IMG/VR virus record: IMGVR_UViG_3300033405_000010
Reading direction: 5' to 3' (one strand)
Length of the DNA: 64,000 bases
Origin: an uncultured virus (IMG/VR IMGVR_UViG_3300033405_000010)
Taxonomy: Duplodnaviria; Heunggongvirae; Uroviricota; Caudoviricetes
Part shown: positions 18,561-52,793 of the stretch, one piece after another
Position numbering within the stretch: position 1 is the first letter of the stretch
Layout of the letters: every line of letters starts with the position of its first letter
Program-made: the position numbers and the translations under genes
The notes under the pieces: generated by a model
Told to the model about the DNA's origin: nothing
Database searches by the model: none
Seen by the model: the letters and a program-made list of their open reading frames with translations, nothing else

Positions 18561-18754
18561 GCCGTCACCACCTCGATTCGGACGATGGGTCGCATCGGCA
18601 TGAATGGGTTCCCGATGATGGTCAGCTTCTCCTCGAACTCGACCGTGACGGATTCCCCTTCCTTGACGGTCGGCGCGTCCCATCCGTTCTCCTGGTCCCG
18701 GGCCAACATCAACGGTGGCGAGTTCTCCCCCGTGAGCGTGACCTTCAGTTTCAT
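18557..18754 (-). CDS. Small beta-rich hypothetical protein
   Basis: MKLKVTLTGE..., ATGA overlap with the TROVE stop. Confidence 0.6.
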   Translation of the reverse strand: MKLKVTLTGENSPPLMLARDQENGWDAPTVKEGESVTVEFEEKLTIIGNPFMPMRPIVRIEVVTA

Positions 18755-20322
18755 GCTTCCGCCTCGGGTCGGGCGGAGGAAGGGGTTGGCGCGAGGTGGA
18801 ACCCGCGGACCTCGTCGAGCGCCTTCGGGCCGGCCTTCTCGCAGAGTCGAACGAAGTCCAGCACGCGGTCCGACCAGCCGCCGATGAGGACCGTCTTGGG
18901 GTCGTCCTGCGGCATCTGGGTCGTCCCGTAGCCGGTCAGGTCGAACGAGTAAAACCGCAGGTTCGGGTTGAGCTTGCGGCGGTACTCGCGGACCTGGTCG
19001 GCCACGGTGTGGCTGCTGACCTTGCCGTGGTCCCAGAGCGTCGCGTCGGGCGCGTCTGTTTCCGAAAAGCACTGCATGTCGCTGAACAGAAGCGCGCGGT
19101 CGAACTTCTCGTGCTCCTTGAGCGCCCACTCGAACACGCGGTATGCCATCGTCGACCGCTCACCGACCTCGGCCTTCTTGACGCGCTCCGCGTTCGTGAG
19201 GATGCCGTCCGTCGAGCGGAGGTGCACCACCGCCGCCTTCGACGCGAAGCCCAGGACCACGGAGTCGGCGCAGAGCTTGTGCGACATCGCCCCGAAGAGC
19301 GACGCGATGTCGATGGGCCAGACGTTCGAGAGCGTCGACATCGGCGTCGAGTTCATCGAGCCCGACAGGTCGCAGGCGATGAGCGTGCGGCCCGAGATGT
19401 CGCCGACGTTCTCGGTCGCCAGGAACATGGCGGTCTCAAGAGCGTCGAGGACGCGCGACGCCTTCGCCGAGTCGCTGTTCTCGATGGCCTTGTGGGCCGA
19501 CCAGAACCGGTACGGGAACTGCCGCGAGCGGGCGATGGCCTTCGGGTCCTCCAGCATCCGAACGACGTCCGAAACGTCGACCTTCTTCTCTAGGAGGTTG
19601 CGGAGGTTGCGGATGCGGGCCATGAAGCCCATCTCGGGCAGCACCTCGGTCCACGCCTCCTTGGTCGAGCCCTTGGCCGAGATGACCGTCTCCCAGGTCG
19701 TCGGGGTCTTGAGCGTGCGCTCGTGGATGCGCTTGAACAGCGCCTTCTCCTTGGCGCCCTTCGGCTTCGGGTGGGCGACGTTCATCACGTCGCGGAACTT
19801 GATGGCCGAGGAGTCACGGTCGTACTTGGCGAGGTCGTACTCCGTGAAGCGGTGGAAGCCGTCCGCCAGCGCACCGCGCAGCGAGCGCGGGAGGGCCCCG
19901 CCGAAACGGGCGTTCCAGTACGCGACAGCCTCCGTTAGCTCGTCGGCGCGGACGAGAATCTCCTTGGCGTACGCACGGGCGAACTTCCGAGCCTCCATCG
20001 AGTGGCACGACTCAACGAGCAGGGCCGTCGAGACCGAGCGGAGGTTCAGCACGTTGCGGCAGTAGCGCGCGAGCTGGAGCGGGAACTCGGCGTCGGTCTT
20101 GGCGACCTTCTCGACCAGGGCCGGGATGGCGACCCAGTCGCCCTTCGCCTCGGGGTCGTAGAACTTCGGCTCCCCGAACAGCGTAGACGCCGCACGGAGG
20201 TACAGCTCCATCGCGGGGTCAGTGGAGAACGCGAGGCCGCCCTCGTAGTTGAGGGTGGCCAGAGGGTGCTCCGCGGCCTTGCTCACCTTCGGCGTCTTCG
20301 CCGTCTTCCCGAACTTCGGCAT
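18751..20322 (-). CDS. rsr: Ro60/Rsr-like TROVE-domain RNA-binding protein with vWA domain
   Basis: NYEGGLAF, RADE, YDLAKY, HPKP, TWET, MARIRNLRN, SRQFPYRF; MIDAS DLSGS; FSDMQ; GGWSD. Confidence 0.93.
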   Translation of the reverse strand: MPKFGKTAKTPKVSKAAEHPLATLNYEGGLAFSTDPAMELYLRAASTLFGEPKFYDPEAKGDWVAIPALVEKVAKTDAEFPLQLARYCRNVLNLRSVSTALLVESCHSMEARKFARAYAKEILVRADELTEAVAYWNARFGGALPRSLRGALADGFHRFTEYDLAKYDRDSSAIKFRDVMNVAHPKPKGAKEKALFKRIHERTLKTPTTWETVISAKGSTKEAWTEVLPEMGFMARIRNLRNLLEKKVDVSDVVRMLEDPKAIARSRQFPYRFWSAHKAIENSDSAKASRVLDALETAMFLATENVGDISGRTLIACDLSGSMNSTPMSTLSNVWPIDIASLFGAMSHKLCADSVVLGFASKAAVVHLRSTDGILTNAERVKKAEVGERSTMAYRVFEWALKEHEKFDRALLFSDMQCFSETDAPDATLWDHGKVSSHTVADQVREYRRKLNPNLRFYSFDLTGYGTTQMPQDDPKTVLIGGWSDRVLDFVRLCEKAGPKALDEVRGFHLAPTPSSARPEAEA

Positions 20323-20380
20323 GGTTGCTTCCTTCCTACGGAAGAACTCATGTTACTAGTAGTATTAAAACAGTTGGAGT

Positions 20381-20462
20381 GGACGGGAAGAGCGGGGAGG
20401 GTGACTGCCCTTTCGGGCACTTTCTAGCAGGAAAGAAGTAACCCTCGCCCTATACCGCGTCC
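20381..20462 (-). ncRNA. Y-RNA-like unit 1
   Basis: 5' GGACGCGGUAUAG ... CUCUUCCCGUCC 3' helix with bulged C; UGCCC-GAAA-GGGCA hairpin; TTTTAGTA about 25-30 nt upstream. Confidence 0.75.
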
Positions 20463-20499
20463 GAACCGGAGTAGGACGCGACTAGTACTAAAACTTGGC

Positions 20500-20580
20500 G
20501 GACGGGAAGAGCGCACAGGGAGACTGCCCTTTCGGGCATCATCAGGAATTGGTGAAGTATCCCCGTGCTATACCGCGTCC
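20500..20580 (-). ncRNA. Y-RNA-like unit 2
   Basis: Same termini and GAAA hairpin; TTTAGTA upstream. Confidence 0.75.
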
Positions 20581-20611
20581 ACACCCTCCAGCGCGCACTA
20601 GTACTAAAGGT

Positions 20612-20681
20612 GGACGGGAAGAGCGAGCCCGGATGGTAGCGTCTCCTTTACGGGGAAGTATCCGAACCCTTTACCGCGTCC
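20612..20681 (-). ncRNA. Y-RNA-like unit 3
   Basis: Same terminal helix; GUAA tetraloop hairpin; TTAAAT upstream. Confidence 0.7.
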
Positions 20682-20711
20682 GCACGGCGATGGCGGTGCC
20701 CGATTTAAGGT

Positions 20712-20831
20712 GGACGGGAAAGGTGAGGAGGGTTTTTTTAGTGCTGCCTCAGCCAGCCCCGAAGGGCCGACGGGAATCGAACCCGCTTACTTTCTTTTTC
20801 AGAGAAGGAACCCGTCCTCTATACCGCGTCC
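20712..20831 (-). ncRNA. Y-RNA-like unit 4 with tRNA-like T-arm (YrlA-like)
   Basis: Same terminal helix; GCGGG-UUCGAUU-CCCGU arm at 20770-20786; cUUCGg hairpin. Confidence 0.78.
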
Positions 20832-20877
20832 GAAAAGAAGGAAGGGGTTGGTCTACTTAGAGGTTGGTGCGAGTCGC

Positions 20878-21365: not shown

Positions 21366-21375
21366 CGACTACCTC

Positions 21376-26263: not shown

Positions 26264-26737
26264 CTTTCTTCTTCCTCCAGTAGAAGCTGTGGCACCGCGG
26301 GCAGGCGACGGGGTCCTTCTTTCGAGGGACCCACTCGTAACCGCACCGTTGGCACCGGTTCGGCCTCTTCATCGAAACCCGACAGGCTACTGATGATGAT
26401 AAAGCACCCGCCAGAGGTCGTGAAACGGCCTCCGGCACGGTAGGGGTACATAATCTTCGGCGCGAACCCTTATATCGTGACTCCCTTTCCTAGTAATCGG
26501 TCTCGGGCGCCCGCGGAAGTACTCGGCCTCGCTGAGAACATGGCCCGTGGGTGCCCACGCCCCATCGACGAGCGGCTGCGCTGCCACTGGAGCGTAGCAT
26601 ACAAATACCGCGATGCGGTTGGGGCCCTCGCCATGTTCTTTCTAGCAGCGAGCGCGAAAGAAGAAAAGTCGCCTGACCCGGTCATCGCTCTGGCCCTTAC
26701 GGACCGCCCTCGAATCCAACTCTGAGAGGGCGGACGC

Positions 26738-38554: not shown

Positions 38555-38625
38555 GGGCCCGTCGTCTAACGGCAGGACACCATTCTGATAAATTGGAGAA
38601 GGGGGTTCGACTCTCCCCGGGCCTA
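38555..38625 (+). tRNA. tRNA-Ile(GAU)
   Basis: Cloverleaf; loop CT-GAT-AA; one U-U pair in the anticodon stem. Confidence 0.85.
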
Positions 38626-38675
38626 CCTCTCCATCGACCTAGGGCTCAAATAGCGTCAACCGGGTGGAGGAGACG

Positions 38676-39284: not shown

Positions 39285-39286
39285 AC

Positions 39287-39589: not shown

Positions 39590-39590
39590 G

Positions 39591-39947
39591 ATGGCTTACA
39601 ATCCGGACTTCCAGCAACTGTTCCCGGGCTCCGAGGAAGACTACATCGGTCTTCCGCCGGACTCCACCGGCAAGAAGATGCGAACGCGGCTGTGGATTAT
39701 CTTCGACCCTGTCGTGGGCGCCTACAACTACGAGGAGGCCGAGGTCGTTCACCTCGGCGACCCGAACGCGCCGAACAACCTCGCCTACGTCAGCAACCTG
39801 GGCGAGCTTCACGTCGACCCGTACCAGCAGCGGGCGATGCAGGAGGAGATTTTCCTCACGCAGTTCGACCGACGTTACACAGAGGATGTGGTCAAGGTTC
39901 AAAAGGCCCGGGAGTATCTCCGGACCGGGACGTCCATTCGACGGTGA
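39591..39947 (+). CDS. Hypothetical protein (virion-associated?)
   Basis: LPPDSTGKKMRT motif; within a structural-like operon. Confidence 0.7.
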   Translation: MAYNPDFQQLFPGSEEDYIGLPPDSTGKKMRTRLWIIFDPVVGAYNYEEAEVVHLGDPNAPNNLAYVSNLGELHVDPYQQRAMQEEIFLTQFDRRYTEDVVKVQKAREYLRTGTSIRR

Positions 39948-39958
39948 GGTGGTGAAAG

Positions 39959-40618
39959 ATGGTTCTAGCGGAAGGCGTCGTTGGTGAGCAGCAACTGGGC
40001 ATCGGTTCTCCGGGCGCGGCCCGTATGGACCAGCAGGGCGGCGTCGTGGCCGCGAACGACCACGGATGGCGCTTCACCGGCAACTACAACAACCGTCTCT
40101 ACACGGTGGCGAACCAGTCCGTGCAGGCGCTGACCCTCATCGGCGCGACGACGTACACCGGGCTCGCGCTCTGGAATCCCCCGGGGTCCGCGGTCATCGC
40201 GTCCGTCGACGAGTGCACGGTCAACGTGGCGACGCTGCCCACGGCGGCGGCCGCCATCCTGCTCTTCGAAATCACGAGCACCCCCTCCGCGTTCACCACG
40301 GCGCAGGTCACCTACGCCGCGAAGGTGCAGCCGTCCATCCAGGGCTCGTCCAACGCCTCGAAGTGCGCTGGCTACACGGCCCTCACCCTGGCGGCGGCCC
40401 CCGACGCTGCCACCGCGCCCATCATCCGGGCGCTCGCGTCCTACCTCGGCGTGACCACGGACGCCACCTCCATCCAGGGCGTCGTGACGAAGGCCATCGA
40501 GGGCAGCATCATCCTCGAACCCGGCACGGGCGTCGGCATCGTCGCCGCCACCACCGCCATCACCGTCATCGGGTCGTTCACCTGGGAAGAACTGCCCCTC
40601 TCCATCTACCCCGGATAG
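39959..40618 (+). CDS. Putative virion protein, paralog A
   Basis: TGLALWNPPGS, IILEPGT, FTWEE. Confidence 0.8.
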   Translation: MVLAEGVVGEQQLGIGSPGAARMDQQGGVVAANDHGWRFTGNYNNRLYTVANQSVQALTLIGATTYTGLALWNPPGSAVIASVDECTVNVATLPTAAAAILLFEITSTPSAFTTAQVTYAAKVQPSIQGSSNASKCAGYTALTLAAAPDAATAPIIRALASYLGVTTDATSIQGVVTKAIEGSIILEPGTGVGIVAATTAITVIGSFTWEELPLSIYPG

Positions 40619-40630
40619 GGAGGACGAGAC

Positions 40631-41293
40631 ATGGTGCTGGTCGAGGGCGTCGTTGGCGAACAACAGCTTGGCATCGGTTCGCCCGGTGCGTTCCGTCTCG
40701 ACCAGCAGGGCGGCATCATCTACGTCAACGACCACGGGATGCAGTTCACCACGAACTACAACAACCGTCTCTTCAACGTCGCCCATCAGGCCGCGACGGC
40801 GTTATCGCTGGCGTCCACCACGACGTACACCGGGCTCGCGCTCTGGAATCCGCCGGGGTCCGCCGTCATCGCATCGGTCCTGGAGGTCACGGCCACGGCG
40901 AACGCGATGCCAGCCGCCGCCGCCCTCATCGTCCTGTTCGAAATCACGACAACCCCTACGTTCGGCACGGCGGTGGTGACCTACGCCTCGAAGGTCCAGC
41001 CCAACATCCAGGGCTCGTCGAACGCCTCGAAGTGCGCTGCCTACGCGGGACTGACGCTGACCACGGGCGCGAACCCTGGAACGGCGACGGCCCCCATCAT
41101 CCGGGGAGTGCAGTCCTACCTGGGCATCACGACCAACGAGACGGAGCTTCAGGACAACGCGACGAAGGCGCTCGATGGCTCCATCATCCTGGAGCCCGGA
41201 ACGGGCGTCGGGATGGTCGCGGTCACCACGGCGGTCACCGTCTTCGGGTCTTTTACGTGGGAAGAGCTACCCATCTCCATCTTCCCCGGGTGA
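40631..41293 (+). CDS. Putative virion protein, paralog B
   Basis: Full-length tandem duplicate of 39959-40618. Confidence 0.8.
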   Translation: MVLVEGVVGEQQLGIGSPGAFRLDQQGGIIYVNDHGMQFTTNYNNRLFNVAHQAATALSLASTTTYTGLALWNPPGSAVIASVLEVTATANAMPAAAALIVLFEITTTPTFGTAVVTYASKVQPNIQGSSNASKCAAYAGLTLTTGANPGTATAPIIRGVQSYLGITTNETELQDNATKALDGSIILEPGTGVGMVAVTTAVTVFGSFTWEELPISIFPG

Positions 41294-41298
41294 GCAAC

Positions 41299-41532
41299 AT
41301 GGCGGAGCGCGAGATACCAGAGGGCGACATCCAACGGACGCAGACGGTCGTCTTCACGAAGCTCGGCCCCGGCCGCTACCGTTTCGCCGTCCGCGGCGAC
41401 TTCTCCTCCGAGGAGTTGACCTTCGCGCTCGACCAGCTCAAGGCGGTGCTCCAGGGCGTGGCGACCCACGTCGGACGGACCTCCACCACGCTCGCCCCGA
41501 CGGTCGAGCCACCCCCGGCCGCCACACATTAG
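41299..41532 (+). CDS. Hypothetical protein
   Basis: Start MAEREIP; typical codon bias. Confidence 0.55.
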   Translation: MAEREIPEGDIQRTQTVVFTKLGPGRYRFAVRGDFSSEELTFALDQLKAVLQGVATHVGRTSTTLAPTVEPPPAATH

Positions 41533-41552
41533 CGCCTCGGAGGTAGACTCCG

Positions 41553-43931
41553 ATGGCGGATGCGTGGAAAATCTGGGACCTCACCGGCTATGAGTACTTC
41601 GTCAGCGGCGCGGAGTTCGTAGCCGAGGTCGGAGTCGCCTACGCGGGGGCCCGTGGGGTCGGCACCGAGCTAATCGCCGAGACCTACAGCCTCGTCGTCT
41701 CCGAGAAACCTACCGGCGTCGAACTCGTCAGCGAAACCGGCGTTTCGGTCACGTCCGAGAAGCCCACCGGCGCGGAGCACGTAGCCGAGGCCGGCGTCTC
41801 GGTCACGTCGGAGAAGCCCACTGGCGCCGAGCACGTTGCTGAATCCGGCGTATCCGTCACCTCTGAGGTAGTCGTCGGCGCGGAGCACGTAGCCGAGGCC
41901 GGCGTTTCGGTCACGTCGGAGAAGCCCACCGGCGCGGAACACGTCGCCGAAACGGGAGTCTCTGTCACGTCGGAGAAACCGACGGGTGCTGAGCACGTCG
42001 CGGAGGTCGGCGTTTCGGTCACCTCCGAGGCCCCTACTGGCGCAGAGCACGTAGCCGAGACCGGCGTCTCCGTCACGTCGGAGAAGCCCACTGGCGCGGA
42101 ACACGTCGCCGAGGTGGGGGTCTCGGTTACGTCGGAGGCGCCCACCGGCGCGGAGCACGTCGCCGAAACGGGCGTCTCGGTGACGTCGGAGAAGCCCACC
42201 GGCGCGGAACACATCGCGGAGACGGGTGTCTCCGTCACGTCGGAGAAACCGACGGGTGCTGAGCACGTCGCGGAGGTCGGCGTTTCGGTCACCTCCGAGG
42301 CCCCTACTGGCGCAGAGCACGTAGCCGAGACCGGCGTCTCCGTCACGTCGGAGGTTGTCGCCGGTGCGGAGCACGTCGCTGAGGCCGGCGCGGCTATCGG
42401 CAAGAACCCGGTCACCGGGACCGAGCAGGTCTCCGAGACCGGGGTCTCCGTCACGTCGGAGAAGCCCACCGGCGCGGAGCAGGTTTCTGAGACCGGCGTT
42501 GCCATCGGCACGTCGGTCGTTTCCGGTGCGGAGCATGTCGCGGAATCCGGCGTCTCCGTCACCTCGGAGAAGCCGACCGGAACGGAGCAGGTCTCCGAGA
42601 CCGGGGTCTCGGTCACGTCGGAGAAGCCGACGGGAGCCGAGCACGTCGCCGAGGTCGGTGTCTCGGTCACCTCGGAGGTAGTCACCGGGGCGGAGGCCAT
42701 CACTGAGACGTCCTACGTGGTGGTATCGGAGAAGCCGACCGGCACCGAGCAGGTCCAGGAGACGTTCAGCATCGTCTACTCTCAGGCCGTCCAGGGGACC
42801 GAGACCGTCTACGAGACGGGCGTGGCCGGCGCCGGGTTCAAACCGGTCGGCGAAGAAGCGGTCAACGTACACGGTGTCATCACGACCAGCATCGGCCTGC
42901 CCGTACTGGAAATCGTCGGCGAGGCGGGGGTCGTCTTCGTCCCGTCCCGCCCGACAGGCGCCGAGGCGGTCGCCGAGGTCGCAACCTCCCAAGTAGTCAT
43001 CCCCGTCACGGGGGCCGAGGAGGTCCAGGAAACCGGCACCGCCTTTGCCGGGGCGGTCGCCACCGGCACGGAGGCCGTCTCCGAGACCTTCGAACTCATC
43101 GTCTCCGAGTATCCGAAGGTCTCCGAGTTCGTCACGGAGTTCGGGCGCGCCGTCGCATACGGCGCGGCCACCGCCTACGGCCGCATCGCCGAGGTCGTCG
43201 GCCTGACGGTCTCCGGCCCGGTCTCCGGCTCCGGCACCATCTTCGAGTCGGGCATCGTCCAGACCGGTCACTTCGTCACCGGCACGGAGGCCGTGGATGA
43301 GGTTGCGAGTCTGAAGGTCGCCAGCGGAATCGCCGGCGCGGAGGCCATCCTCGACGCGGCGAATCTCGTGGTCTCCGTCCGGCCCGCTGTGCAGGGCACG
43401 GTCGGAGAGACCGCGACGCTCGTCGTCGTGAACCCGCCCCGACCCTCGGGCGGAGGCGGTGGAGGCGGTGGCTACTACCCCTACCAGTACGACCGGTGGC
43501 CCGCCGAGACCCAGGCGTACTTCGACCAGACCATCGGCAACATGGAACGCTCCTACGTCAAGCGGAACTACCCGCCGGCGTACATCCTGGTCCAACCCCC
43601 CGAGCAGGCGGTCTCCGAGGCCATCGCGTTCGCCGAGCCGCCCACGGCCATGCCAGCCGTCAGCGGAACGGCCATCCCGACGTGGGCGATTGCGCTCGCG
43701 GGTGTCGCCGTTGGCGCCGCGGCCACCATCGGAATCCTGTGGGCCGCCTCGCGCTGGAACTTCGGGCCGCGCCCTCGCCCGCAGCCACCTGAGGGCCCTG
43801 CGCCGCGGCCACTCCCTCCCAGGACGAACCCACGGAAGAAGCGCCGCCCGCGGGGCCGGCGGGCTCGGCAAGCCCTTCCGAAGGTCGCGCTGAAGCGGCG
43901 CAGGTCTTATCAGACCGGAGCCGGATGGTAG
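41553..43931 (+). CDS. Membrane-anchored 18-aa tandem-repeat stalk protein
   Basis: About 20 conserved EKPTGAEHVAETGVSVTS repeats; C-terminal TM helix and basic tail. Confidence 0.85.
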   Translation: MADAWKIWDLTGYEYFVSGAEFVAEVGVAYAGARGVGTELIAETYSLVVSEKPTGVELVSETGVSVTSEKPTGAEHVAEAGVSVTSEKPTGAEHVAESGVSVTSEVVVGAEHVAEAGVSVTSEKPTGAEHVAETGVSVTSEKPTGAEHVAEVGVSVTSEAPTGAEHVAETGVSVTSEKPTGAEHVAEVGVSVTSEAPTGAEHVAETGVSVTSEKPTGAEHIAETGVSVTSEKPTGAEHVAEVGVSVTSEAPTGAEHVAETGVSVTSEVVAGAEHVAEAGAAIGKNPVTGTEQVSETGVSVTSEKPTGAEQVSETGVAIGTSVVSGAEHVAESGVSVTSEKPTGTEQVSETGVSVTSEKPTGAEHVAEVGVSVTSEVVTGAEAITETSYVVVSEKPTGTEQVQETFSIVYSQAVQGTETVYETGVAGAGFKPVGEEAVNVHGVITTSIGLPVLEIVGEAGVVFVPSRPTGAEAVAEVATSQVVIPVTGAEEVQETGTAFAGAVATGTEAVSETFELIVSEYPKVSEFVTEFGRAVAYGAATAYGRIAEVVGLTVSGPVSGSGTIFESGIVQTGHFVTGTEAVDEVASLKVASGIAGAEAILDAANLVVSVRPAVQGTVGETATLVVVNPPRPSGGGGGGGGYYPYQYDRWPAETQAYFDQTIGNMERSYVKRNYPPAYILVQPPEQAVSEAIAFAEPPTAMPAVSGTAIPTWAIALAGVAVGAAATIGILWAASRWNFGPRPRPQPPEGPAPRPLPPRTNPRKKRRPRGRRARQALPKVALKRRRSYQTGAGW
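41670..42760 (+). repeat. 54-bp coding tandem repeat
   Basis: Recurrent GAGAAGCCCACCGGCGCGGAGCACGT-like units. Confidence 0.9.
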
Positions 43932-43946
43932 GCCGACGGAGCCCTG

Positions 43947-44723
43947 ATGCCGACCATAACAAATTGGGCCGTTGGGTCGAGTGACACCGGAACGACAAGC
44001 GTTGACATCACCTGCACCACCGGGGAGTCGGTCTACGTCTTCGTCGGCGGCGACGCGACCGGAGGCATCGGCCCGAGCGCGGTCACGGACGACCAATCGC
44101 CGCCCAACGTCTACACGCGCATCGACGGAAGCAACATCCAACAGGGCACCAGCACCGTCTGCCTCTTCGCGTACTACTGCGACAACGTCCAGTGCCCCGG
44201 GGGCAGTCTCAACGTCACCGTGACGATGGGTGCGCTGAACTTCACGGGCATCGTGTCCGCCGCCGCCCTCAGCGGGACCGTCACCCCCTCCCTCGATGCG
44301 TTTGCCCTTTCCACAAGGATGACGGGGACCGGCGCTGTCCAGGCCATCGGCCCGTGCGACCTCGGCATTACCCAGGGCGGCGAACTCGCCTTCGTCTTCG
44401 CTGTTGCCGGCGACAGTGCCGCGTTCCTGCCCGGCGCTCAGACCCTCTCTCCACCGCTCACCGGCGGGACCGAGGTGATGGACACGGATGCGAACGGTTT
44501 TTACGACCTCGTTGTCGCGTACGACCCGAACCCAATTCCCGGGAGGATGGCCTACAACGGCACCTCGAACGAGGGCGCAGCGAATGGCGTCGTTCAGATG
44601 ATGGGCGTGAGCATCATGGGCCCGCCAGTCGTCGCCGGCACGACCAACACGAACCCGCTCTCCTACTACGGCTACTCCCCCGAGACGATGTTCGGGTTCC
44701 GGCAGGAGCCGACCGAAGGGTAG
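43947..44723 (+). CDS. Beta-rich putative virion/adhesion protein
   Basis: 258 aa, Gly/Thr-rich. Confidence 0.65.
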   Translation: MPTITNWAVGSSDTGTTSVDITCTTGESVYVFVGGDATGGIGPSAVTDDQSPPNVYTRIDGSNIQQGTSTVCLFAYYCDNVQCPGGSLNVTVTMGALNFTGIVSAAALSGTVTPSLDAFALSTRMTGTGAVQAIGPCDLGITQGGELAFVFAVAGDSAAFLPGAQTLSPPLTGGTEVMDTDANGFYDLVVAYDPNPIPGRMAYNGTSNEGAANGVVQMMGVSIMGPPVVAGTTNTNPLSYYGYSPETMFGFRQEPTEG

Positions 44724-44828
44724 CACCCATTAAATCCCGGGACGCGCGTAGCGGATTCGCCATGCGGTTCGGGCGAACGCGATGTACTACCTGTCCCGGC
44801 ACACCGGGTCGGTAGACCATTCGCCCCT

Positions 44829-44903
44829 GCCGCTCTAGTTCAATCCGCAGAATCCCGGTCTTGTAAATCGGGGATGCCGGTTCAAATCCGACGAGCGGCT
44901 CCA
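44829..44903 (+). tRNA. tRNA-Thr(UGU), CCA encoded
   Basis: Cloverleaf; loop CT-TGT-AA. Confidence 0.88.
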
Positions 44904-44904
44904 T

Positions 44905-44975
44905 GCCGCTGTAGGATAACGGCAGTCCAGGACTTTCGTAAAGTCCGAGCGGGGGTTCGACTCCCTCTAGCGGCT
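44905..44975 (+). tRNA. tRNA-Thr(CGU)
   Basis: GGACT/AGTCC stem; loop TT-CGT-AA. Confidence 0.88.
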
Positions 44976-44976
44976 T

Positions 44977-45047
44977 GCCCCAGGGGCAGGTCGGATACGC
45001 GACGGTCCGCAAAATCGTCCAAGAGGGTTCAACTCCCTCCTGGGGCT
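44977..45047 (+). tRNA. tRNA-Cys(GCA), atypical
   Basis: Loop CC-GCA-AA; U73; weak D arm; G8. Confidence 0.75.
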
Positions 45048-45054
45048 CTCACAT

Positions 45055-45125
45055 GCCACCGCAGTTCGGCGGACGAATCCCAGCATGGTAAGTTGGGGAT
45101 GCGGGTTCAACTCCTGCCGGTGGCT
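45055..45125 (+). tRNA. tRNA-Thr(GGU)
   Basis: Loop AT-GGT-AA; C8. Confidence 0.83.
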
Positions 45126-45160
45126 CTATATTTATATATCGGAGAGACCTAATCGTCTCT

Positions 45161-45240
45161 GCCGGGCGGCTATGAAAGCAGCCTCTGAGGGGCTCGACAC
45201 CCTCTTGGGTCGCGGAGGGGTCGAGCCCTCCCCGTTCGGC
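45161..45240 (+). ncRNA. Putative tRNA-like structured RNA / leader of the RNA ligase gene
   Basis: Starts about 25 nt after TTTATATA; 9-bp closing helix with G-U pairs; three internal hairpins. Confidence 0.45.
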
Positions 45241-45257
45241 TGCTCGATTGAGGAAAG

Positions 45258-46340
45258 ATGCCGACACTCCTGACGCGCGAGGAGTTCCGCGAGGCGGTCT
45301 TCGAACGCGATGACAAGACCTGCGTCGTCCCGGGCTGCGGGTACGCCCAGGAGGTCGAGGCAGGCCACGAGGTCGAGGTCGTCGCTCACCACATCATCGA
45401 GCGACGGCTCTGGACCGCCGCGGGCGAGGAGGCCGGTTACTTCGTCGAGAACGGCGCCACCCTCTGTCCGTTCCACCACCTATGGGGGGCGGAAACCTGC
45501 ACGCTTCAACCCGACGTCCTCCGCTACTGGGCCGAAATCGAGGACGTCGTCCTGCCGTCCGGATGGGACCCGGCCCAACGGTACGACAAGTGGGGCGTCG
45601 TGCTCAAGCAGCCGAACCGGGAGCGCGTGAAGTACCCCTCCACGCCGTACCTCCCCATGAGCCCGGGCGTGGAGGAGAACGACATCAACCTCCCCGACCT
45701 GAAGCCGTTCGTCCACCAGCCGCTCTGCATCACCATCAAGATGGACGGCGGCAACACGCTCCTGACGCGCGACCTGGTCGCGGCGCGGAACGGACACTCC
45801 GCGGACCACGCCTCGTTCGACTGGCTGAAGGCGGCACACGCCGGGTTCGCTAAGCAAATCCCCGAGGGCGTCCAAATCTTCGGAGAGAACCTCTACGCGC
45901 GGCACTCCATCCACTACACCGGGAAGCTCCAGCTCGACTCGCTGTTCATGGTCTTTGGCGTCTACGACCAGAAGGAGCAGATGTTCGGCTCCTGGCCGCA
46001 CGTCGTGCAGGCCGCGAAGCTCATCGGCTTCCCGACGGTCCCGGTCCTGGAGTACGGGAAGGAGTACCCGAACGAGGATGCGCTCCGCGTCCGGCTCTTC
46101 CGCCTCGCCAACGACGTCATCAAGCGCGGCCACGAGGGAATCGTCGTCCGCCTCGCGTACCCGTACGTGTTCGGGATGCACGAGGGTTACGAAAGTCGTA
46201 ACTCCAACAGCGGAGAAACATGGCGCGTCAACGCCATAGCTAAGTACGTCCGCGAGGGCCACGTCCAGAGCGAGGAGCGGTGGGACCACGTCCCCATCGT
46301 CAAGAACGAGGTCAAACCGGGGAAGCCGTTCCAGCGGTAG
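45258..46340 (+). CDS. HNH-like domain fused to an RNA ligase (nucleotidyltransferase) domain
   Basis: VFERD..CVVPGC...AHHIIER...NGATLC..HH; KYPSTPYLP, KMDG, FGEN, FGV, HEGIVVR, KYVR. Confidence 0.88.
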   Translation: MPTLLTREEFREAVFERDDKTCVVPGCGYAQEVEAGHEVEVVAHHIIERRLWTAAGEEAGYFVENGATLCPFHHLWGAETCTLQPDVLRYWAEIEDVVLPSGWDPAQRYDKWGVVLKQPNRERVKYPSTPYLPMSPGVEENDINLPDLKPFVHQPLCITIKMDGGNTLLTRDLVAARNGHSADHASFDWLKAAHAGFAKQIPEGVQIFGENLYARHSIHYTGKLQLDSLFMVFGVYDQKEQMFGSWPHVVQAAKLIGFPTVPVLEYGKEYPNEDALRVRLFRLANDVIKRGHEGIVVRLAYPYVFGMHEGYESRNSNSGETWRVNAIAKYVREGHVQSEERWDHVPIVKNEVKPGKPFQR

Positions 46341-46348
46341 GCGTTGCG

Positions 46349-47185
46349 ATGACCTGGGATAGCTACCCCCCCGCCATCCATCAAAAGGCGTTGGACCTGT
46401 ATTCGAAGGGCAACACGGCGAAGCAGGTTGGAATCACATTACAGCTTCCCAAGTCTACCGTTCTCCTATGGGTCCATCGGGCAGGACTGCCAAGCCATAA
46501 GCCGAAAAGGAAACTCTCCAACCGGGAGCTTCGTCAGGCCCACGCGGAGTACATCAACGACCGTCTCTCCGCCGAAGCAGTTGGCCGCAAGTACGGGATG
46601 TCGCTGGCCGGAATCCTGAAGAGCTTCAGACGTGCCGGCCTTCGAATCCGTGGGCACGGAGAGAGCCTCGAACTCGATGAATGGACTGCTTCATCCGCCG
46701 TATCGTTCTACAGACATGGACTGTCCGTAGAGGCCACCGGACGACGACTGGGCATTAGCCCCAGCGCCGTCAACAAACTGGCTCACGCGGCCGGGGTCGT
46801 ACGGAACCGGTACGAAACTCGTCGGCGCGTTCGACCCGCGGTGAGGGAACAGTTCTGGAGGATGGTTGAAGCGGGAAGGACGAAGGCAGCAGCCGGCCGC
46901 ACTCTCGGGCTGAGCGCACAGCAGACGTGGAATCTCGTACGGTCGTCTAGGGCCAAGCCCAGCGAAAATAACCGCGCGGGAGGCGGGCTCAACGTTACGG
47001 ACAGGGCGGCTGTGGAGTCTGCCCACCGGGACTATGTTGAATCGGGCGACAGTCTCAAGCGAGTCGCAGCGCGGCATGGATTGTCGGCGACCGGCCTGAC
47101 CTGCGCGTTTCAACGTCTGGGTCTGCCCACCCGGTCTCCCAAGGAAGCGCAACGCCTCCTCGCCAGGAAGCGTTTGATGCCCTAG
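46349..47185 (+). CDS. Multi-HTH repeat DNA-binding protein
   Basis: About five LY..G.S...V...LG-type units; weaker codon bias than its neighbours. Confidence 0.75.
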   Translation: MTWDSYPPAIHQKALDLYSKGNTAKQVGITLQLPKSTVLLWVHRAGLPSHKPKRKLSNRELRQAHAEYINDRLSAEAVGRKYGMSLAGILKSFRRAGLRIRGHGESLELDEWTASSAVSFYRHGLSVEATGRRLGISPSAVNKLAHAAGVVRNRYETRRRVRPAVREQFWRMVEAGRTKAAAGRTLGLSAQQTWNLVRSSRAKPSENNRAGGGLNVTDRAAVESAHRDYVESGDSLKRVAARHGLSATGLTCAFQRLGLPTRSPKEAQRLLARKRLMP

Positions 47186-47258
47186 TGGACCCCCCGGGAC
47201 TCGAACCCGGAATCTCCCACATGCCAAGCGGGTGCGTTTCCGATTGCGCCAGGAGCCC
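47186..47258 (-). tRNA. tRNA-Ala(GGC)
   Basis: Cloverleaf with G3:U70. Confidence 0.9.
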
Positions 47259-47310
47259 GAGTTCCTAGTAATCGCGCAGGTTCAAATATCTGCGGGTGCA
47301 TCCCGTGAGC

Positions 47311-47381
47311 AGCGGGATACCACGAAGGTCGTGGGCCGGCCTCATAAGCCGGGAGCCCAGGTTCGATTCCTGGTTCCGCTA
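47311..47381 (+). tRNA. tRNA-Met(CAU) (A1:U72, initiator-like acceptor)
   Basis: AGCGGGA acceptor; loop CT-CAT-AA; lacks the full GGG/CCC anticodon-stem signature. Confidence 0.85.
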
Positions 47382-47436
47382 TCCGCCGATGGCGCTCACG
47401 AGGAGACGAGGGAAAGTCGGTCGACACGCCGGCGAT

Positions 47437-47511
47437 GCCCTCGTACCTTAGCCTGGACAAAGGAGCCGCCTTCTAAGCGGTGCGTCGTGAGTTCGAATCT
47501 CACCGAGGGCG
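47437..47511 (+). tRNA. tRNA-Arg(UCU)
   Basis: Cloverleaf; loop CT-TCT-AA. Confidence 0.92.
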
Positions 47512-47517
47512 TTCGAC

Positions 47518-47588
47518 GCGCCCGTGGTCTACCGGCATGACGCCACGTTGCCAACGTGGCAGAGCGAGTTCAACTCTCGCCGGGCGCA
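47518..47588 (+). tRNA. tRNA-Gly(GCC)
   Basis: GCG acceptor; loop TT-GCC-AA; A73. Confidence 0.92.
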
Positions 47589-47752
47589 CTGAACGTCCGA
47601 AGTTCGAGGTCATCGTCCGCCGCCCTGGACTCGATGGGTCGTACGCGCTGGGGCCATTCACTCGCCGACGGGCGGCGGAGGTCGTCGCGCTCCTGAAGAT
47701 GCTCACGTTCCCTCCGGACGAGTACGAAATCCGTCCGCTTCCCCCGCTCAAA

Positions 47753-47824
47753 CGCCGCGGGCAGGAGTCGAACCTGCGAACCTCCGGTTAACAGCCGGGC
47801 GCTTAGCCGTTCAGCTTCCGCGGC
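47753..47824 (-). tRNA. tRNA-Asn(GUU)
   Basis: Loop CT-GTT-AA; G73; A8. Confidence 0.88.
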
Positions 47825-47834
47825 AAATGTGAGG

Positions 47835-47908
47835 TGCGGACGCCGGGATTTGAACCCAGACCGTCGGCTTGGAAGGCCGTCGTGCTGCCGGATTGACACC
47901 ACGTCCGC
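47835..47908 (-). tRNA. tRNA-Gly(UCC)
   Basis: Loop CT-TCC-AA. Confidence 0.92.
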
Positions 47909-47909
47909 A

Positions 47910-47981
47910 TAGCCCGAGAGGGAGTCGAACCCCCGCCGAGAACTTGTAGGGTTCCCATGCTCGCCGTTACACCACCGGGCT
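47910..47981 (-). tRNA. tRNA-Val(UAC)
   Basis: Loop CC-TAC-AA (C33). Confidence 0.85.
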
Positions 47982-47992
47982 GTCGGAGTGAA

Positions 47993-48064
47993 TGGACCTG
48001 GCGCGAGTTGAACGCGCAATTCGGAGTTGCGGGCTCCGGAGGTTTCCGATTACCGCACAGGCCC
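47993..48064 (-). tRNA. tRNA-Ala(CGC)
   Basis: G3:U70; loop CC-CGC-AA (C33). Confidence 0.85.
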
Positions 48065-48201
48065 ACGCCCGACGCCCGGTCCCCGATTCGTGGGACCGAG
48101 TTCGGCTACTGCTGCTGCGGCCTCCTGCCGTGCGTGCGCCATTACCCCACCCACGCTCGCACTAGTTCTTAATTCCTCGCTCGTGGGTGGAGGGGCCTGA
48201 T

Positions 48202-48621
48202 ATGAGCTTCCCCAAGGTTCGACTGAAGCACCCACCGCCCGTCCGCCCGAATCCGGAGGAGATGAAGCCGCCCAAGGCCGCGGTCGACCTGCCGCTCGAA
48301 GTCGTACTCCCCGAGAAGATTTACATGGTGACGGAGGCGAACATCCGCGTCCCGCAGGAGGTTCCCGCGGTCTACGAAGACCCGCTCGGACCTGGGCCCG
48401 GCGCCGACCCGAAGACCTACCAGCGGTTGGCAGCCTACCGTCGCGGATGGGTGGACGCGCTCCAGTCGCTGGCCCGGGAACTCGGCTACGAATGGGAGGA
48501 CCTCATCCAGGTCGGTCAGGAGGAGGACAACATGGAGCGCGATGCGCTCATCGACCGCATCGTCAAGCGCCTCCGCGCCGAGAACGAAATGGTCAGCGGG
48601 TTGTCCGCGCTCTTCGGTTGA
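48202..48621 (+). CDS. Hypothetical protein
   Basis: GGAGG upstream; typical codon bias. Confidence 0.7.
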   Translation: MSFPKVRLKHPPPVRPNPEEMKPPKAAVDLPLEVVLPEKIYMVTEANIRVPQEVPAVYEDPLGPGPGADPKTYQRLAAYRRGWVDALQSLARELGYEWEDLIQVGQEEDNMERDALIDRIVKRLRAENEMVSGLSALFG

Positions 48622-48623
48622 GG

Positions 48624-48695
48624 GGCCTCCGCCGAGGGTTGAACTCGGCCCCGCGGCTTCACAGACCGCTGTGCACCCGCTACACTACGGAGGCC
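48624..48695 (-). tRNA. tRNA-His(GUG)
   Basis: Encoded G-1 and C73; loop CT-GTG-AA. Confidence 0.9.
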
Positions 48696-48713
48696 ACGCG
48701 AATGGGTTCTCCA

Positions 48714-48785
48714 TAGCCCCGCCCGGAGTCGAACCGAGTTCTGCACTTTCAAGGAGTGCCGAGATTGCCGTCTCTCCCCGGGGCT
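48714..48785 (-). tRNA. tRNA-Gln(UUG)
   Basis: A1:U72; loop CC-TTG-AA (C33); G8. Confidence 0.85.
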
Positions 48786-48787
48786 GC

Positions 48788-48864
48788 TGGTAGCCCCGGG
48801 AGGATTCGAACCCCCACAATCCTCGGCCAGAACGAGGTAGCCTTTCCGATTAGCCAACGGGGCT
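48788..48864 (-). tRNA. tRNA-Gln(CUG), CCA encoded
   Basis: A1:U72; loop TT-CTG-GC. Confidence 0.88.
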
Positions 48865-50972: not shown

Positions 50973-51006
50973 GGCTTAAATCCCGGAGACCGGGTGGGAG
51001 GGGCGT

Positions 51007-51294
51007 ATGGCAGCCCCTGGCTCAGTCCTCAGCAACGTCGTGACGGTGACAGAAGCAGCGGCCCCGTTCACCATCGCCATCACCGCGACCCCGCTCACGC
51101 TCCCGTACACGGGCGGTGCCGTCACCATCCTAGTGACGACCAACCTCCCCGATGGGACGACCCTCAACCTACTGGCGAACGGCGCTCAGATTGACAGCAC
51201 CACTTCGACTGGCGGAGCGGCGGCTTTCACGGAAACAGTCGCGGCCAACACCACGACCACGGCGATTTCGATTGCCTATCAGGTCACGAACTAG
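51007..51294 (+). CDS. Stand-alone copy of the peptidase B C-terminal beta domain
   Basis: Shared TGG.V...TTNLPDGTTLN.L.NG...VTN. Confidence 0.75.
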   Translation: MAAPGSVLSNVVTVTEAAAPFTIAITATPLTLPYTGGAVTILVTTNLPDGTTLNLLANGAQIDSTTSTGGAAAFTETVAANTTTTAISIAYQVTN

Positions 51295-51303
51295 GCTCGG
51301 CCG

Positions 51304-51510
51304 ATGGCCGTCGCGTCCAACGTCGTGACCGTGACGCTGGAAGCCGGGCCGGAGTCCGACCGGCAAATCCTGCTGCGGGTCATCCACCTGCTGCGGAACA
51401 TCGCGCGCTACATCCGTAACCACCCCGAGGACATCGACCGGGCGAAAATCCTGGAGGCCCTGGACAAGGTCGAGGAAGTCCTCAAGCGGTTGGCCGATAG
51501 CGAAGGATAA
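51304..51510 (+). CDS. Small hypothetical protein
   Basis: Shares SNVVTVT with the upstream gene. Confidence 0.6.
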   Translation: MAVASNVVTVTLEAGPESDRQILLRVIHLLRNIARYIRNHPEDIDRAKILEALDKVEEVLKRLADSEG

Positions 51511-52609
51511 CGCCGAGGCCCCCGAAGCCCTTCAGGAACTCCGCGCCCGACGCGCCCTCCTCAGCGAGGAGGTGCACCGGCACGCCCTGGCCCACGGCGA
51601 CATCCACCACGTCGTGGAATCGGGAGTCGACGCCTTCGTAGAGGACGAGCGCGCTCGCGCGCCGCTCTTCGAGGGCCCGCAGCACCTCAGCATGGCCGTA
51701 CTCGGCCAGCCCCTGGCGCACCGCATCTGCGAACTTCGTCACTACGATTTGGTCCTTTTGTAGTGACAAATGTGCGAGAAGGTCTCCCGCGGAGCGGACC
51801 AACTCCTGGAGCCCGAACTCGTTGGTGTAGCTGACGTCCACGAGCGGGCGGAGAACCTTCCGGACCAGGCGGTAGTCCATAAACTCACCTTCCGCCCACT
51901 GACGCTTTGTGTCCCCGGGTCCGCCGATGAGCACCCCGTCCAGCCTGTCGACCTGGTCGAGGAACGAGCGGTTCGCCATGTCCCCGATTTTCACGAAGAA
52001 CTCGTGCGCCGCCTGCTCCGTCTGCCGTTCCCACCGGTGCTGGGACTGGCCTCCCGCGTCGTGCTTCGGCGGGACGTGGCTCTCCTTCGAGTCCAACTCG
52101 ATGACCCGCGAGCCGCGGAGGAGCCCGAGCGTGACCTCCTTCCGGTCGAGGACGATGAGAGCGTACTGTGCCTTATCCTCCAACTGCTCGCGCAGCGGGT
52201 CGAGCATGAACTTCGGACCGCAGAAGTAGACCTCCCGAAGGAATGGCTCGGACGGCTCCACGACACGGACCGATTCGGGGCTCGCGTAGACGGCGAGGCC
52301 GTTCGAGGGAGTAAAGCGGTACTGACGCAGGGTCGAGAGGACCTTCTGGAGGGAGTCAAGGACGCCCATCCGCGTGGTGCGGCTCTTGATGTTCGCCGCC
52401 TGGGTCAGTTCGTCGGCGATACGCTTCTGCGCGTCGAGGATGTTGCGCGTGGGCGGCAGGACAAGCGAGACCAGTTCGGTCGCCCGTCCCTCCTCCGACT
52501 CAAGGTCGTGGAGGAGGCGGCGGAGTCAGATGCGACCGCGGGCGTCCGTGGCGTCGGGAGGCATCCCGGGCCCTTTGGCGGAGCCCTGCCGATTCGGCTC
52601 TGAACTCAT
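51482..52609 (-). CDS. prf1: Archaeal-type class-1 peptide chain release factor (aRF1) with in-frame UGA at 52526-52528
   Basis: One frame: MSSEPN...RGRI*LRRLLHDLESEEGRATELVSLVLPP...AANIKS...YFCGPKF...AGGQS...GFGGLGVILRY. Confidence 0.88.
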
Positions 52610-52678
52610 CGTTCCTGTGCCTCCCGATTCAGGATGGCCCTCGCAATATATAAATATCACCGGGCCGATGGTCGAGTA

Positions 52679-52793
52679 GGCACGGCCGCGGTCCGCAAGG
52701 CAACAAAGGTAGGTTCGACTAGTAGCTCCAAGCCGAGTCGAGCGGACCGAGAGGAGGATGGGCTCCGCGGGGCGGCTCCTCCGAAGCTGTGCC
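52679..52793 (+). ncRNA. Putative three-way-junction ncRNA divergent from aRF1
   Basis: GGCACGGC/GCTGTGCC, CGGTCCGC/GCGGACCG, TCGACT/AGTCGA and GAGGAG/CTCCTC helices; starts about 23 nt after TATATAAATA. Confidence 0.5.

Follow-up and report, generated by a model that had tools for sequence, protein, structure and literature searches.

A combination of tRNA provisioning, RNA repair and TROVE proteins has been described before, both in jumbo phages (Iyer et al, 2021; PMC7824862) and in the Borgs of Methanoperedens (PMC11208441). We compared with these and other described systems a 64,000-nucleotide (nt) stretch of DNA (hereafter the window), recorded in IMG/VR as the uncultured virus IMGVR_UViG_3300033405_000010, in which an initial annotation had seen a dispersed RNA-repair and translation-rescue toolkit between positions 18751 and 52793. 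The new content of the window is not the toolkit concept; it is an apparently recoded gene for the archaeal release factor aRF1 and an array of Y-like RNAs with archaeal-style promoter spacing upstream of a Ro60 gene. Statements on articles cited with a PMC number refer to the available portions of their text.

The jumbo-phage repertoire resembles the window in its tRNA arrays, its ATP-dependent RNA ligases, its ROT/TROVE proteins with a tRNA-like partner RNA and its NADAR/Macro proteins, and was interpreted as a set of counter-measures to host attacks on translation (PMC7824862). That survey concerns bacteriophages, lists PTH2 for ribosome rescue and kinases or phosphoesterases together with the ligases, and in its available text the term "release factor" stands only in the title of a reference. 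In contrast, the element in the window has archaeal affinities and carries an aRF1 gene, and an end-healing enzyme was not found in the window. Borgs, giant elements of archaea, count an RNA ligase, a TROVE protein and 5-23 tRNAs among their core genes, and protection of tRNAs was proposed for them; they are not viruses, and neither "release factor" nor "aRF1" occurs in the available main text (PMC11208441). The archaeal virus Halogranum tailed virus 1 (HGTV-1; NC_021328; 143.9 kb) shares with the window Ro60 (33% identity), a homolog of the HNH-RNA ligase (35%) and tRNA genes. Unlike the window, it encodes RtcB and a tRNA nucleotidyltransferase, and a further nucleotidyltransferase lies close to its Ro60; aRF1 is absent, and a search up to 6 kb from its Ro60 gene revealed no Y-like RNA. 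The proteins of the window are also not strongly acidic (median isoelectric point, pI, of 5.7), unlike those of a haloarchaeal virus.

For the two genes of main interest, the closest precedents lie elsewhere. In the eRF1 genes of Mimivirus and Megavirus, UGA-C is a leaky readthrough stop, both readthrough and a frameshift are needed, and an autoregulation like that of bacterial release factors was proposed (Jeudy et al, 2012; PMC3521657). For 254 bacteria and 22 phages, Chen et al (2014; PMC4201824) described YrlA-like RNAs that lie no more than 4 kb from Ro60 and on its strand, each species having one or more RNAs that are tRNA-like; the word "archaea" is absent from the available main text of that article.

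The aRF1 gene lies on the minus strand (51482-52609), 2.6 kb beyond the last tRNA island. Based on homology and on the TIGR03676 model, it starts at ATG 52609 (or 52564), runs into an in-frame TGA at 52526-52528 and then continues for 347 codons that hold NIKS, YxCxxxF and GGQ. The ATG-started open reading frame (ORF) at 51482-52369 is only the 3' part of this gene, and homology to the N domain, including NIKS, continues upstream of it as far as the TGA. The frame is therefore not continuous, and the stretch from the TGA to 52369 contains no ATG, GTG or TTG. The 347 amino acids (aa) behind the TGA scored 314.4 bits with TIGR03676, the aRF1 equivalog model (cut-off 234.7), and 47.6 bits with the Pelota model (cut-off 177.65). 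In the translation we found AANIKSR, YFCGPKF and AGGQSQ, which we take to be the motifs known by the names NIKS, YxCxxxF and GGQ. The initial annotation had listed this gene in a translation-rescue toolkit; with its stop-reading NIKS and YxCxxxF motifs, the product is instead a canonical termination factor.

The in-frame stop is conserved. In two related loci, L007 and L008, whose aRF1 proteins are 74% identical to that of the window, the TGA is at the identical position, there seven codons after an ATG. Contigs of three further public sequencing runs were identical across the site, so the TGA is not an assembly slip. In a third lineage (P0003, 68% identity) the gene call begins inside the N domain, which is only indirectly suggestive of a stop. 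Normal starts were found in the cellular homologs P0007 and P0011, in a 352-aa homolog (P0004) and at locus L009. The segment from the TGA to 52369 (52 codons) showed 10 synonymous and 4 non-synonymous changes between the two lineages, with NIKS kept in both, which argues that it is translated and under purifying selection. When the window is compared with L008, the longest stretch of unchanged codons in the gene consists of the TGA plus the 12 codons behind it; 47.6% of the codons differ overall between the two, and a run of 14 codons would stay unchanged at a given position with a naive probability of ~1e-4. A hairpin starts 8 nt past the UGA (52489-52517, minus strand; the fold of 52460-52540 has a minimum free energy (MFE) of -36 kcal/mol and a z-score of -1.99). 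The stop context is UGA-C, the tetranucleotide of the Mimivirus eRF1 readthrough site. Thus, an early in-frame stop in a weak-termination context, as looked for in a recoded gene, is kept in the window and in L007/L008.

Tentatively, and at a little less than even chances, we propose that this aRF1 gene of an archaeal mobile element is expressed by programmed readthrough of the early UGA-C ahead of the hairpin, coupled to a feedback. Ribosomes that initiate at the ATG upstream would encounter UGA-C 27 codons later (7 codons later in the relative). At high release-factor activity they would terminate there, and at low activity they would read through to give full-length aRF1, so that the gene would add termination capacity at a level set by its own product. 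The likeness to the giant-virus eRF1 genes is that a virus-encoded factor of the aRF1/eRF1 type ("virus" being inferred for the window) has its own gene interrupted by an in-frame UGA-C, and by analogy the shared logic would be that the product senses its own stop. The giant-virus genes also need a frameshift; the gene in the window, a prokaryotic case, has just one stop in frame, close to its 5' end and with a hairpin behind it. The tRNAs of the element include Cys-GCA and Arg-UCU, which are near-cognate to UGA, and with its own tRNAs the element could set the efficiency of stop reading during infection. According to a 2021 review, recoding in Archaea has been demonstrated only as selenocysteine and pyrrolysine readthrough and as -1 frameshifting, and -1 or +1 frameshifting has been reported in some haloarchaeal viruses (PMC8211752). 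No aRF1 homolog was present among 50,697 phage and archaeal-virus records, our literature searches returned no paper on aRF1 in a prokaryotic virus, and the conserved in-frame UGA-C with its hairpin in an aRF1 gene looks new.

The main rival of readthrough is that the interrupted gene is decaying or N-terminally truncated, and yields only a 295-aa product from ATG 52369, a codon-blind GGQ hydrolase, or nothing at all. Public gene callers indeed gave 295-aa products (P0001, P0002), and Pfam found in the 295-aa ORF only domains 2 and 3 of eRF1 next to weaker acVLRF1 and baeRF matches. Against decay stand the purifying selection on the 52 codons between the TGA and this ATG, with NIKS intact in both lineages, the identical position of the stop at 74% protein identity, and the unchanged site in contigs of three further runs. 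We consider decay or truncation unlikely. Three other explanations of the TGA were examined. A genome-wide reassignment of TGA was rejected because TGA serves as a normal stop in more genes than any other codon (34 of 63), and a suppressor tRNA was rejected since none of the 17 tRNAs in the window has a stop-reading anticodon. Insertion of selenocysteine is unlikely, given that tRNA-Sec matches were only sub-threshold (one in L003) and that the residue would have no obvious role in the N-terminal helix; no SECIS (selenocysteine insertion sequence) search was made.

The second new feature lies at the other end of the toolkit. Ro60 (18751-20322, minus strand) is a 523-aa protein composed of a TROVE ring and a C-terminal vWA domain. 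Its HEAT-repeat ring matched PF05731 (TROVE) at 99.5 bits (cut-off 23), its vWA part matched PF25045 (vWA_Ro60) at 33.3 bits (cut-off 27.7), and phrog_850 was found at an E-value of 3.6e-47. The translation of the vWA part contains D-L-S-G-S (DxSxS), presumably its metal-site motif. Directly upstream of Ro60, a stretch of 556 nt holds four tandem Y-like units (20377-20834), also on the minus strand. They lie 55-512 nt upstream of the Ro60 ATG, inside the 4-kb criterion used for YrlA-like RNAs (PMC4201824). Y1 (20708-20834, 127 nt) has a closing stem with a bulged C that leads to a multibranch domain with a T-arm mimic and a subsequent hairpin (MFE -48.7 kcal/mol, z -2.64). In Y2 (20608-20684, 77 nt) fold and alignment gave a closing stem, bulged C and internal loop as in Y1, and a second stem that covaries. 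Y3 (20496-20583, 88 nt) and Y4 (20377-20465, 89 nt) were recognized by fold, alignment and covariance model.

All four units share an invariant closing stem of 5 + 2 pairs with one bulged C, an internal loop, a second stem and a variable apical part. Their alignment has 14 consensus pairs, and 98.2% of its cells are paired, whereas sliding the partner by 1-3 columns lowered the pairing to 48-68%. Within the second stem, four of seven pairs change on both sides, and the resulting covariation score was reached by none of 500 shuffles. A covariance model built from the four units (R1) recovered only these four in the window, Y1 with 73.9 bits. Elsewhere it gave one weak match (E 0.058), directly upstream of the Ro60 gene of locus L002, in a stretch that folds with z -4.76; it found no Y-like RNA in HGTV-1 within 6 kb of Ro60, in L003-L006 or in L007/L008. 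AT-rich boxes are centred 24.5-27.5 nt upstream of the predicted 5' G of each Y RNA, and T-runs follow each 3' stem. A box about 25 nt upstream is the spacing expected for independent archaeal transcription units, and each Y RNA apparently has its own promoter.

The window resembles Rsr/YrlA (PMC4201824; RF02553) in that small RNAs lie on the same strand within 4 kb of Ro60, that at least one of them is tRNA-like and that their 5' and 3' ends pair. It differs from YrlA in having four tandem units with TATA-like boxes ~25 nt upstream, in its GACGCGG motif, in showing no D-arm mimic and in scoring below the Rfam threshold. Y1 matched RF02553 only partially, over model positions 31-62 (16.4 bits, E 1.8), and no YrlA match at E<=1 was found over the whole window; with this best score far under the gathering score of 69 bits, the RNAs are not assigned to the YrlA family. 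The T-arm mimic of Y1, a 5-bp stem with a 7-nt UUCGAUU loop, aligned together with the next hairpin to the T-arm and following hairpin of the YrlA model. GACGCGG is present in all four units where YrlA has GNCGAAN0-1G, the 5' motif that is the presumed Ro60 contact of YrlA-type RNAs (PMC4201824), and the match is limited to G-N-C-G..G. In Y2-Y4, GG(A/U)UACUUC follows the 5' strand of the second stem. The same sequence recurs in RNAs upstream of Ro60 homologs at loci L002, L003 and L005, where sub-threshold YrlA matches of 28-41 bits were also found, and in L003 it aligned to the YrlA consensus. The adjacency and the structure of the Y-like RNAs make them candidate partners of Ro60. If they act like bacterial Rsr/YrlA, Ro60 and the Y RNAs would form a ribonucleoprotein (RNP) that binds misfolded or broken RNAs. 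An array of Y RNAs with archaeal-style TATA spacing looks new.

The remaining parts of the toolkit lie between these two genes. ARAGORN called 17 tRNA genes, grouped into four clusters that span 38468-48864; 14 of the 17 also reached the Rfam tRNA gathering score. The first cluster (38468-38627, plus strand) holds tRNA-Ile(UAU) and tRNA-Ile(GAU); the second (44829-45126, plus strand) holds tRNA-Thr(UGU), Thr(CGU), Cys(GCA) and Thr(GGU), all four of which are also present in L007. A third cluster with genes on both strands (47185-48065) consists of Ala(GGC)-, Met(CAU)+, Arg(UCU)+, Gly(GCC)+, Asn(GUU)-, Gly(UCC)-, Val(UAC)- and Ala(CGC)-, six of which were called in the same order in L007. The fourth (48622-48864, minus strand) is made up of tRNA-His(GUG), Gln(UUG) and Gln(CUG), and both tRNA-Gln begin with A1-U72. 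Six of the 17 tRNAs decode codons that are rare in 43 genes of the element (AGA 1%, AUA 3%, ACA 4%, GUA 4%, GGA 12% and CAA 16% of the respective amino acid), a mild argument that they replace lost host tRNAs instead of supplementing codons. Plain optimisation of translation would have the tRNAs supplement codons poorly served by the host, aRF1 raise the capacity to terminate during a fast lytic burst, and Ro60 and the ligase be unrelated housekeeping genes. Codon compensation is the most widely accepted account of phage tRNAs (PMC10264068), and the other 11 tRNAs decode codons common in the element's own genes; the tRNAs for AUA, ACA, AGA and GUA, however, read codons whose share of the respective amino acid is only 1-4% there. 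We regard optimisation as quite improbable. Under the replacement reading, the tRNAs would stand in for host tRNAs that have been lost.

The RNA ligase gene (45258-46340, plus strand) encodes a 360-aa, ATP-dependent enzyme with an N-terminal Cys/His HNH-like domain (PF09414 81.8 bits; phrog_24030 E 1.1e-73). A total of 577 full-length homologs were found. In an alignment of 41 sequences, K161-x-D-G, E210, E293-G294 and K329 are invariant, with K161, D163 and G164 present in 41 of 41, and seven Cys/His residues are invariant in the first 75 alignment positions. The N-terminal part gave a weak match to HNH_2 (E 0.021, under the cut-off), and the HGTV-1 homolog is annotated with an HNH domain. 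A sequence search of the PDB with the ligase returned no meaningful match; its AF2 (AlphaFold2) model has a pLDDT of 92.8. The enzyme would reseal nicks with 3'-OH and 5'-P ends. Between the ligase and the tRNA island lies a 301-aa protein with repeated helix-turn-helix (HTH) motifs (46280-47185, plus strand; HTH_23 E 1.3e-09). L007 (10.2 kb) is colinear with the window from 52.7 to 44.4 kb, with identities of 74% for aRF1, 82% for a phrog_19005 protein, 71% for a 144-aa protein and 86% for the ligase, and with 13 tRNAs in kept order; L008 extends the colinearity to 56.7 kb. Window positions 46340-47278 gave no tblastx match to L007, and the HTH protein is without a counterpart there. The block of tRNAs, ligase and aRF1 (44.8-52.7 kb) is conserved in L007 by shared descent, which is not independent co-occurrence.

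The NADAR protein (37170-37760, minus strand) was identified by Pfam NADAR (115 bits vs 35.1) and TIGR02464 (105 bits); with the anti-phage NADAR model NF053876 it reached 67.5 against a cut-off of 240. Its true start is probably ATG 37625. Divergent from it lies a gene for a 231-aa ADP-ribosyltransferase (ART) of the R-S-ExE type (37705-38400, plus strand), recognized by fold and motif, which directly precedes the two tRNA-Ile genes. The Pfam ART model matched this protein only at E 0.17, under the cut-off, and its atlas feature score was 0.96 with a TM of ~0.5 to ADPrib_exo_Tox/ART clusters. Only 15 homologs were found among 1.84 billion representatives. Y141-R142-E143, S165 (the serine of S-x-S) and G-E-x-E (E196-x-E198) are invariant in all nine aligned sequences. 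The AF2 model (pLDDT 88.3) had 96 PDB matches at E<=0.001, and the matches listed were all ADP-ribosyltransferases or ART-type toxins and effectors, including toxin/immunity pairs. The protein downstream of NADAR (36592-37173) had no usable atlas match.

NADARs reverse guanine ADP-ribosylation (PMC11543638, PMC11125620). DarT-NADAR and ART-ARH pairs are like the window in that an ADP-ribosyltransferase stands beside a member of a family that removes ADP-ribose, and the ART-ARH pair 8za7 was among the fold matches. The ART of the window differs in belonging to the R-S-ExE (C3/iota-like) fold class rather than to DarT, and its gene is divergent from NADAR rather than in an operon with it. With the ART as back-to-back neighbour, we read NADAR as half of a writer-eraser pair and not as part of the RNA-repair toolkit in which the initial annotation had placed it. 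The two proteins would write and erase ADP-ribosylation, separately from RNA ligation. A take-over kit was also considered: the ART, perhaps together with further genes, would disable RNA or translation of the host, and tRNAs, aRF1 and ligase, being insensitive, would step in so that viral translation alone continues. An active-looking R-S-ExE ART that has NADAR as its divergent neighbour and two tRNA genes directly after it would fit such a kit, ART toxins that modify tRNA anticodon loops exist (PMC13617354), and NADAR, ligase and aRF1 share one promoter box. The few homologs of the ART give little context, however, and nothing shows that host factors are modified. We regard a take-over kit as highly doubtful.

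The shared box is the 11-nt AT-rich sequence TATTTATATAT, which has 6 exact copies in the window against 0.01 expected. It lies upstream of NADAR (37646-37656, inside the long NADAR ORF and 20 nt upstream of ATG 37625), of the ligase (45129-45139, plus strand, exact match), of aRF1 (52646-52656, minus strand, exact match) and of three units of other genes, and it is kept upstream of both ligase and aRF1 in L007 and upstream of aRF1 in L008. The box makes it probable that ligase, aRF1 and NADAR are turned on at the same time, as one temporal expression class. Ro60 and the Y RNAs use a different box. A separate 22-nt motif, GGGTTCAAATACC.T.A.CCGG, was found in three copies at up to 3 mismatches against 0.00 expected (3884-3905, plus; 14751-14772, minus; 38642-38663, plus). 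Each copy ends exactly at a start codon (of a 1272-aa protein, of a 156-aa protein and of a run of acidic, Lys/Arg-poor proteins). The motif resembles a second class of promoter, with leaderless mRNAs, that may serve late or structural genes. In a fold scan of 20 intergenic gaps with mononucleotide shuffles, the strongest signal (z -5.6) was at 26503-26602 (plus strand), between divergent RecT and PrimPol genes, and could mark an origin or control region. Two further gaps, 53839-53938 and 45159-45258, had z ~ -4, and these structured intergenic stretches may be promoters, terminators or an origin.

The initial annotation had named Ro60, Y-like RNAs, an RNA ligase, 17 tRNAs, aRF1, NADAR and extra noncoding RNAs on one element, and had read them as an integrated defence against host tRNA cleavage or translation shut-off. 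Six of these seven components were verified at or near their proposed positions; in place of extra noncoding RNAs, Rfam at E<=1 over the window gave only tRNAs and sub-threshold matches overlapping tRNAs. The placement on one element is plausible from the even GC content, 62-70% per 2 kb over the whole window, and from a contig of 98,235 bp, the longest in the own-cluster rows of both aRF1 and Ro60. The theme of translation support under attack or shut-off stood, and the integrated machine did not: the parts are spread over 34 kb on both strands, use at least two types of promoter box and are interleaved with replication genes. We lean, by a small measure, towards reading the span as a set of separately transcribed auxiliary modules on an archaeal element of at least 98 kb, an uncultivated virus or extrachromosomal element of a non-halophilic archaeon, rather than as a single system. 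Together, the modules would keep the protein synthesis of the element running when host RNAs or factors are depleted or damaged.

An integrated pathway against anticodon nucleases would make more of the same parts, with the Ro60-Y RNP capturing cleaved tRNAs and handing them to the ligase, viral tRNAs bridging the gap and aRF1 freeing stalled ribosomes. Co-occurrence in relatives speaks partly for it. If contig labels of equal size are taken as one contig, Ro60 (74%), ligase (75%) and aRF1 (68%) are retained in a relative of 91,814 bp, all three are present in a closer relative (~29 kb), and a contig of 64,920 bp has the ligase (62%) and Ro60 (40%). TROVE, RNA ligase and tRNAs recur in HGTV-1 and are also described in Nidhogg viruses of Asgard archaea and in Borgs (PMC11208441). 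Y1 mimics a tRNA T-arm, and Salmonella Y RNAs were discussed together with the rtcBA repair operon (PMC7790460). tRNA genes lay within 10 kb of Ro60 at five of five distant IMG/VR loci. On the other side, the parts are 18-32 kb apart under different promoter boxes, an end-healing enzyme was not found in the window, aRF1 with NIKS and YxCxxxF is a termination factor and not a codon-independent rescue factor, NADAR belongs with the ART, and most phages with Ro60 lack this ligase family: the phage collection has Ro60 in 106 records and the ligase family in 27, with 4 records (3 viruses) common to both among 64 of the 106 Ro60 rows. We judge an integrated pathway improbable and keep to separate modules.

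Two of the distant Ro60 loci carry RNAs worth recording in their own right. L004 has two CUA-anticodon tRNAs (6373-6571, minus strand; tRNA-Pyl in ARAGORN) on a viral contig with a Ro60 homolog; these are amber suppressors, a hint of stop-codon recoding in that phage. In L006, a permuted transfer-messenger RNA with a tag peptide (15674-16188, plus strand; ARAGORN) lies ~4 kb from the Ro60 homolog, amid 8 tRNA genes.

Genes of the window were called by third-position GC; 78 ORFs were compared with Pfam and PHROGs, a further 19 with Pfam and 15 with NCBIfam. Between the toolkit parts, Pfam recognized two DNA methylases, ParB, RecT, a PrimPol-D5 primase, DUF5131 and an SNF2 helicase; the majority of the remaining ORFs had no match in Pfam or PHROGs. 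Among the other genes, a 384-aa protein (9578-10732, minus strand) has a C-terminal glutaredoxin/thioredoxin-like domain (Pfam E 5.9e-08), and a 54-aa ORF at 16505-16669 resembles a DnaJ-type zinc finger with a score under the cut-off. The stretch is present in six public runs, all labelled peat metagenome, and none of the six is listed as an RNA run. A megablast search with 24 kb of the window gave no DNA-level match in the phage collection.

We consider it likely that the host is an archaeon, and the element is probably an archaeal virus or another extrachromosomal element. The nearest named homologs of aRF1 are those of Thermoplasmata and Methanobacteriales (33-37% identity). A1-U72 is a mark of archaeal tRNA-Gln, and it is the first pair of both tRNA-Gln and of tRNA-Met in the window and of tRNA-Gln in the relative L007; in contrast, the phage tRNA-Gln of locus L002 has U1-A72. 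HGTV-1, a haloarchaeal virus, was the best match of Ro60 (33% identity) and one of the best of the ligase (35%) among the 50,697 phage records, and an Aenigmatarchaeota metagenome-assembled genome gave the sole named Ro60 homolog (42% identity) among the 120 matches listed. AT-rich boxes, which we take to resemble the archaeal TATA-box consensus, stand upstream of many genes of the window. The aRF1 type, the A1-U72 tRNAs, the HGTV-1 and Aenigmatarchaeota matches and the TATA-like boxes hence favour an archaeal host. A salt-in halophile was rejected, as the median pI over 33 proteins was 5.7 and many of them are basic. Relatives of aRF1 gave no further host clue, with none in a viral-contig collection and only cellular aRF1s, at 33-40%, in a genome-contig collection. 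In four runs, the part of the window around GGQ (51971-52054) was matched by other contigs, at ~80% identity, at this place only and at 4-8x the depth of the element's contig. These contigs are presumably cellular aRF1 genes of abundant archaea in the same samples, which might be candidate hosts.

Several observations weigh against the account given here, in part or as a whole. For the recoded gene, the z-score of the hairpin is modest, and the hairpin sequence is identical in both lineages and so offers no covariation. For the Y RNAs, the covariation count comes from four sequences that are all paralogs of one genome. For the ligase, the model matched about equally well the nucleotidyltransferase domains of African swine fever virus DNA ligase, Naegleria RNA ligase, archaeal Rnl3, T4 Rnl2 and Trl1 (E ~1e-5, TM 0.25-0.38), so that its fold does not settle the subfamily (Rnl1, 2, 3, 5 or Trl1) or RNA versus DNA as substrate. 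No kinase, phosphatase, phosphoesterase, RtcB or CCA-adding enzyme was found among the ORFs searched in the window, beyond which the element extends. The end-healing polynucleotide kinase/phosphatase that stands alongside the ligase in T4-type tRNA repair was thus not found among these ORFs; in jumbo phages such enzymes generally accompany ATP-dependent RNA ligases, and many RNases leave ends that a ligase cannot use (PMC7824862). Ro60 is 18 kb from the nearest tRNA, under another type of box, with nothing that links it in function to the ligase, and homologs of ligase, aRF1, NADAR or ART were found in the flanks of none of the five distant Ro60 loci. As for the host, a GC content of 65% and frequent GGAGG-like (Shine-Dalgarno-like) leaders are also compatible with a bacterium. 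No capsid, portal or terminase gene was recognized in the 64 kb (PHROGs at E<=1e-5; 22 proteins at E<=0.05), so that the term "virus" is drawn from gene content rather than demonstrated.

The aRF1/eRF1-type release factor on this prokaryotic mobile element is without a counterpart in the phage and archaeal-virus records searched. If the proposed readthrough is true, its conserved internal stop would be a concrete case of translational feedback in Archaea, the first archaeal stop-codon readthrough without selenocysteine or pyrrolysine, and a prokaryotic counterpart of the feedback loops of Mimivirus eRF1 and bacterial RF2. Likewise, the Y-like units would be the first array of Y RNAs whose promoters are spaced as in archaea. 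An RNP known from animals, bacteria and phages is extended to an archaeal context by Ro60 and its four candidate Y RNAs, which also provide defined RNAs for binding studies. Finally, TROVE, RNA ligase and tRNAs recur together in archaeal elements that are unrelated to one another, four in all (the window, HGTV-1, Nidhogg viruses and Borgs), which suggests that attack on tRNA also matters in the conflict between archaeal viruses and their hosts.

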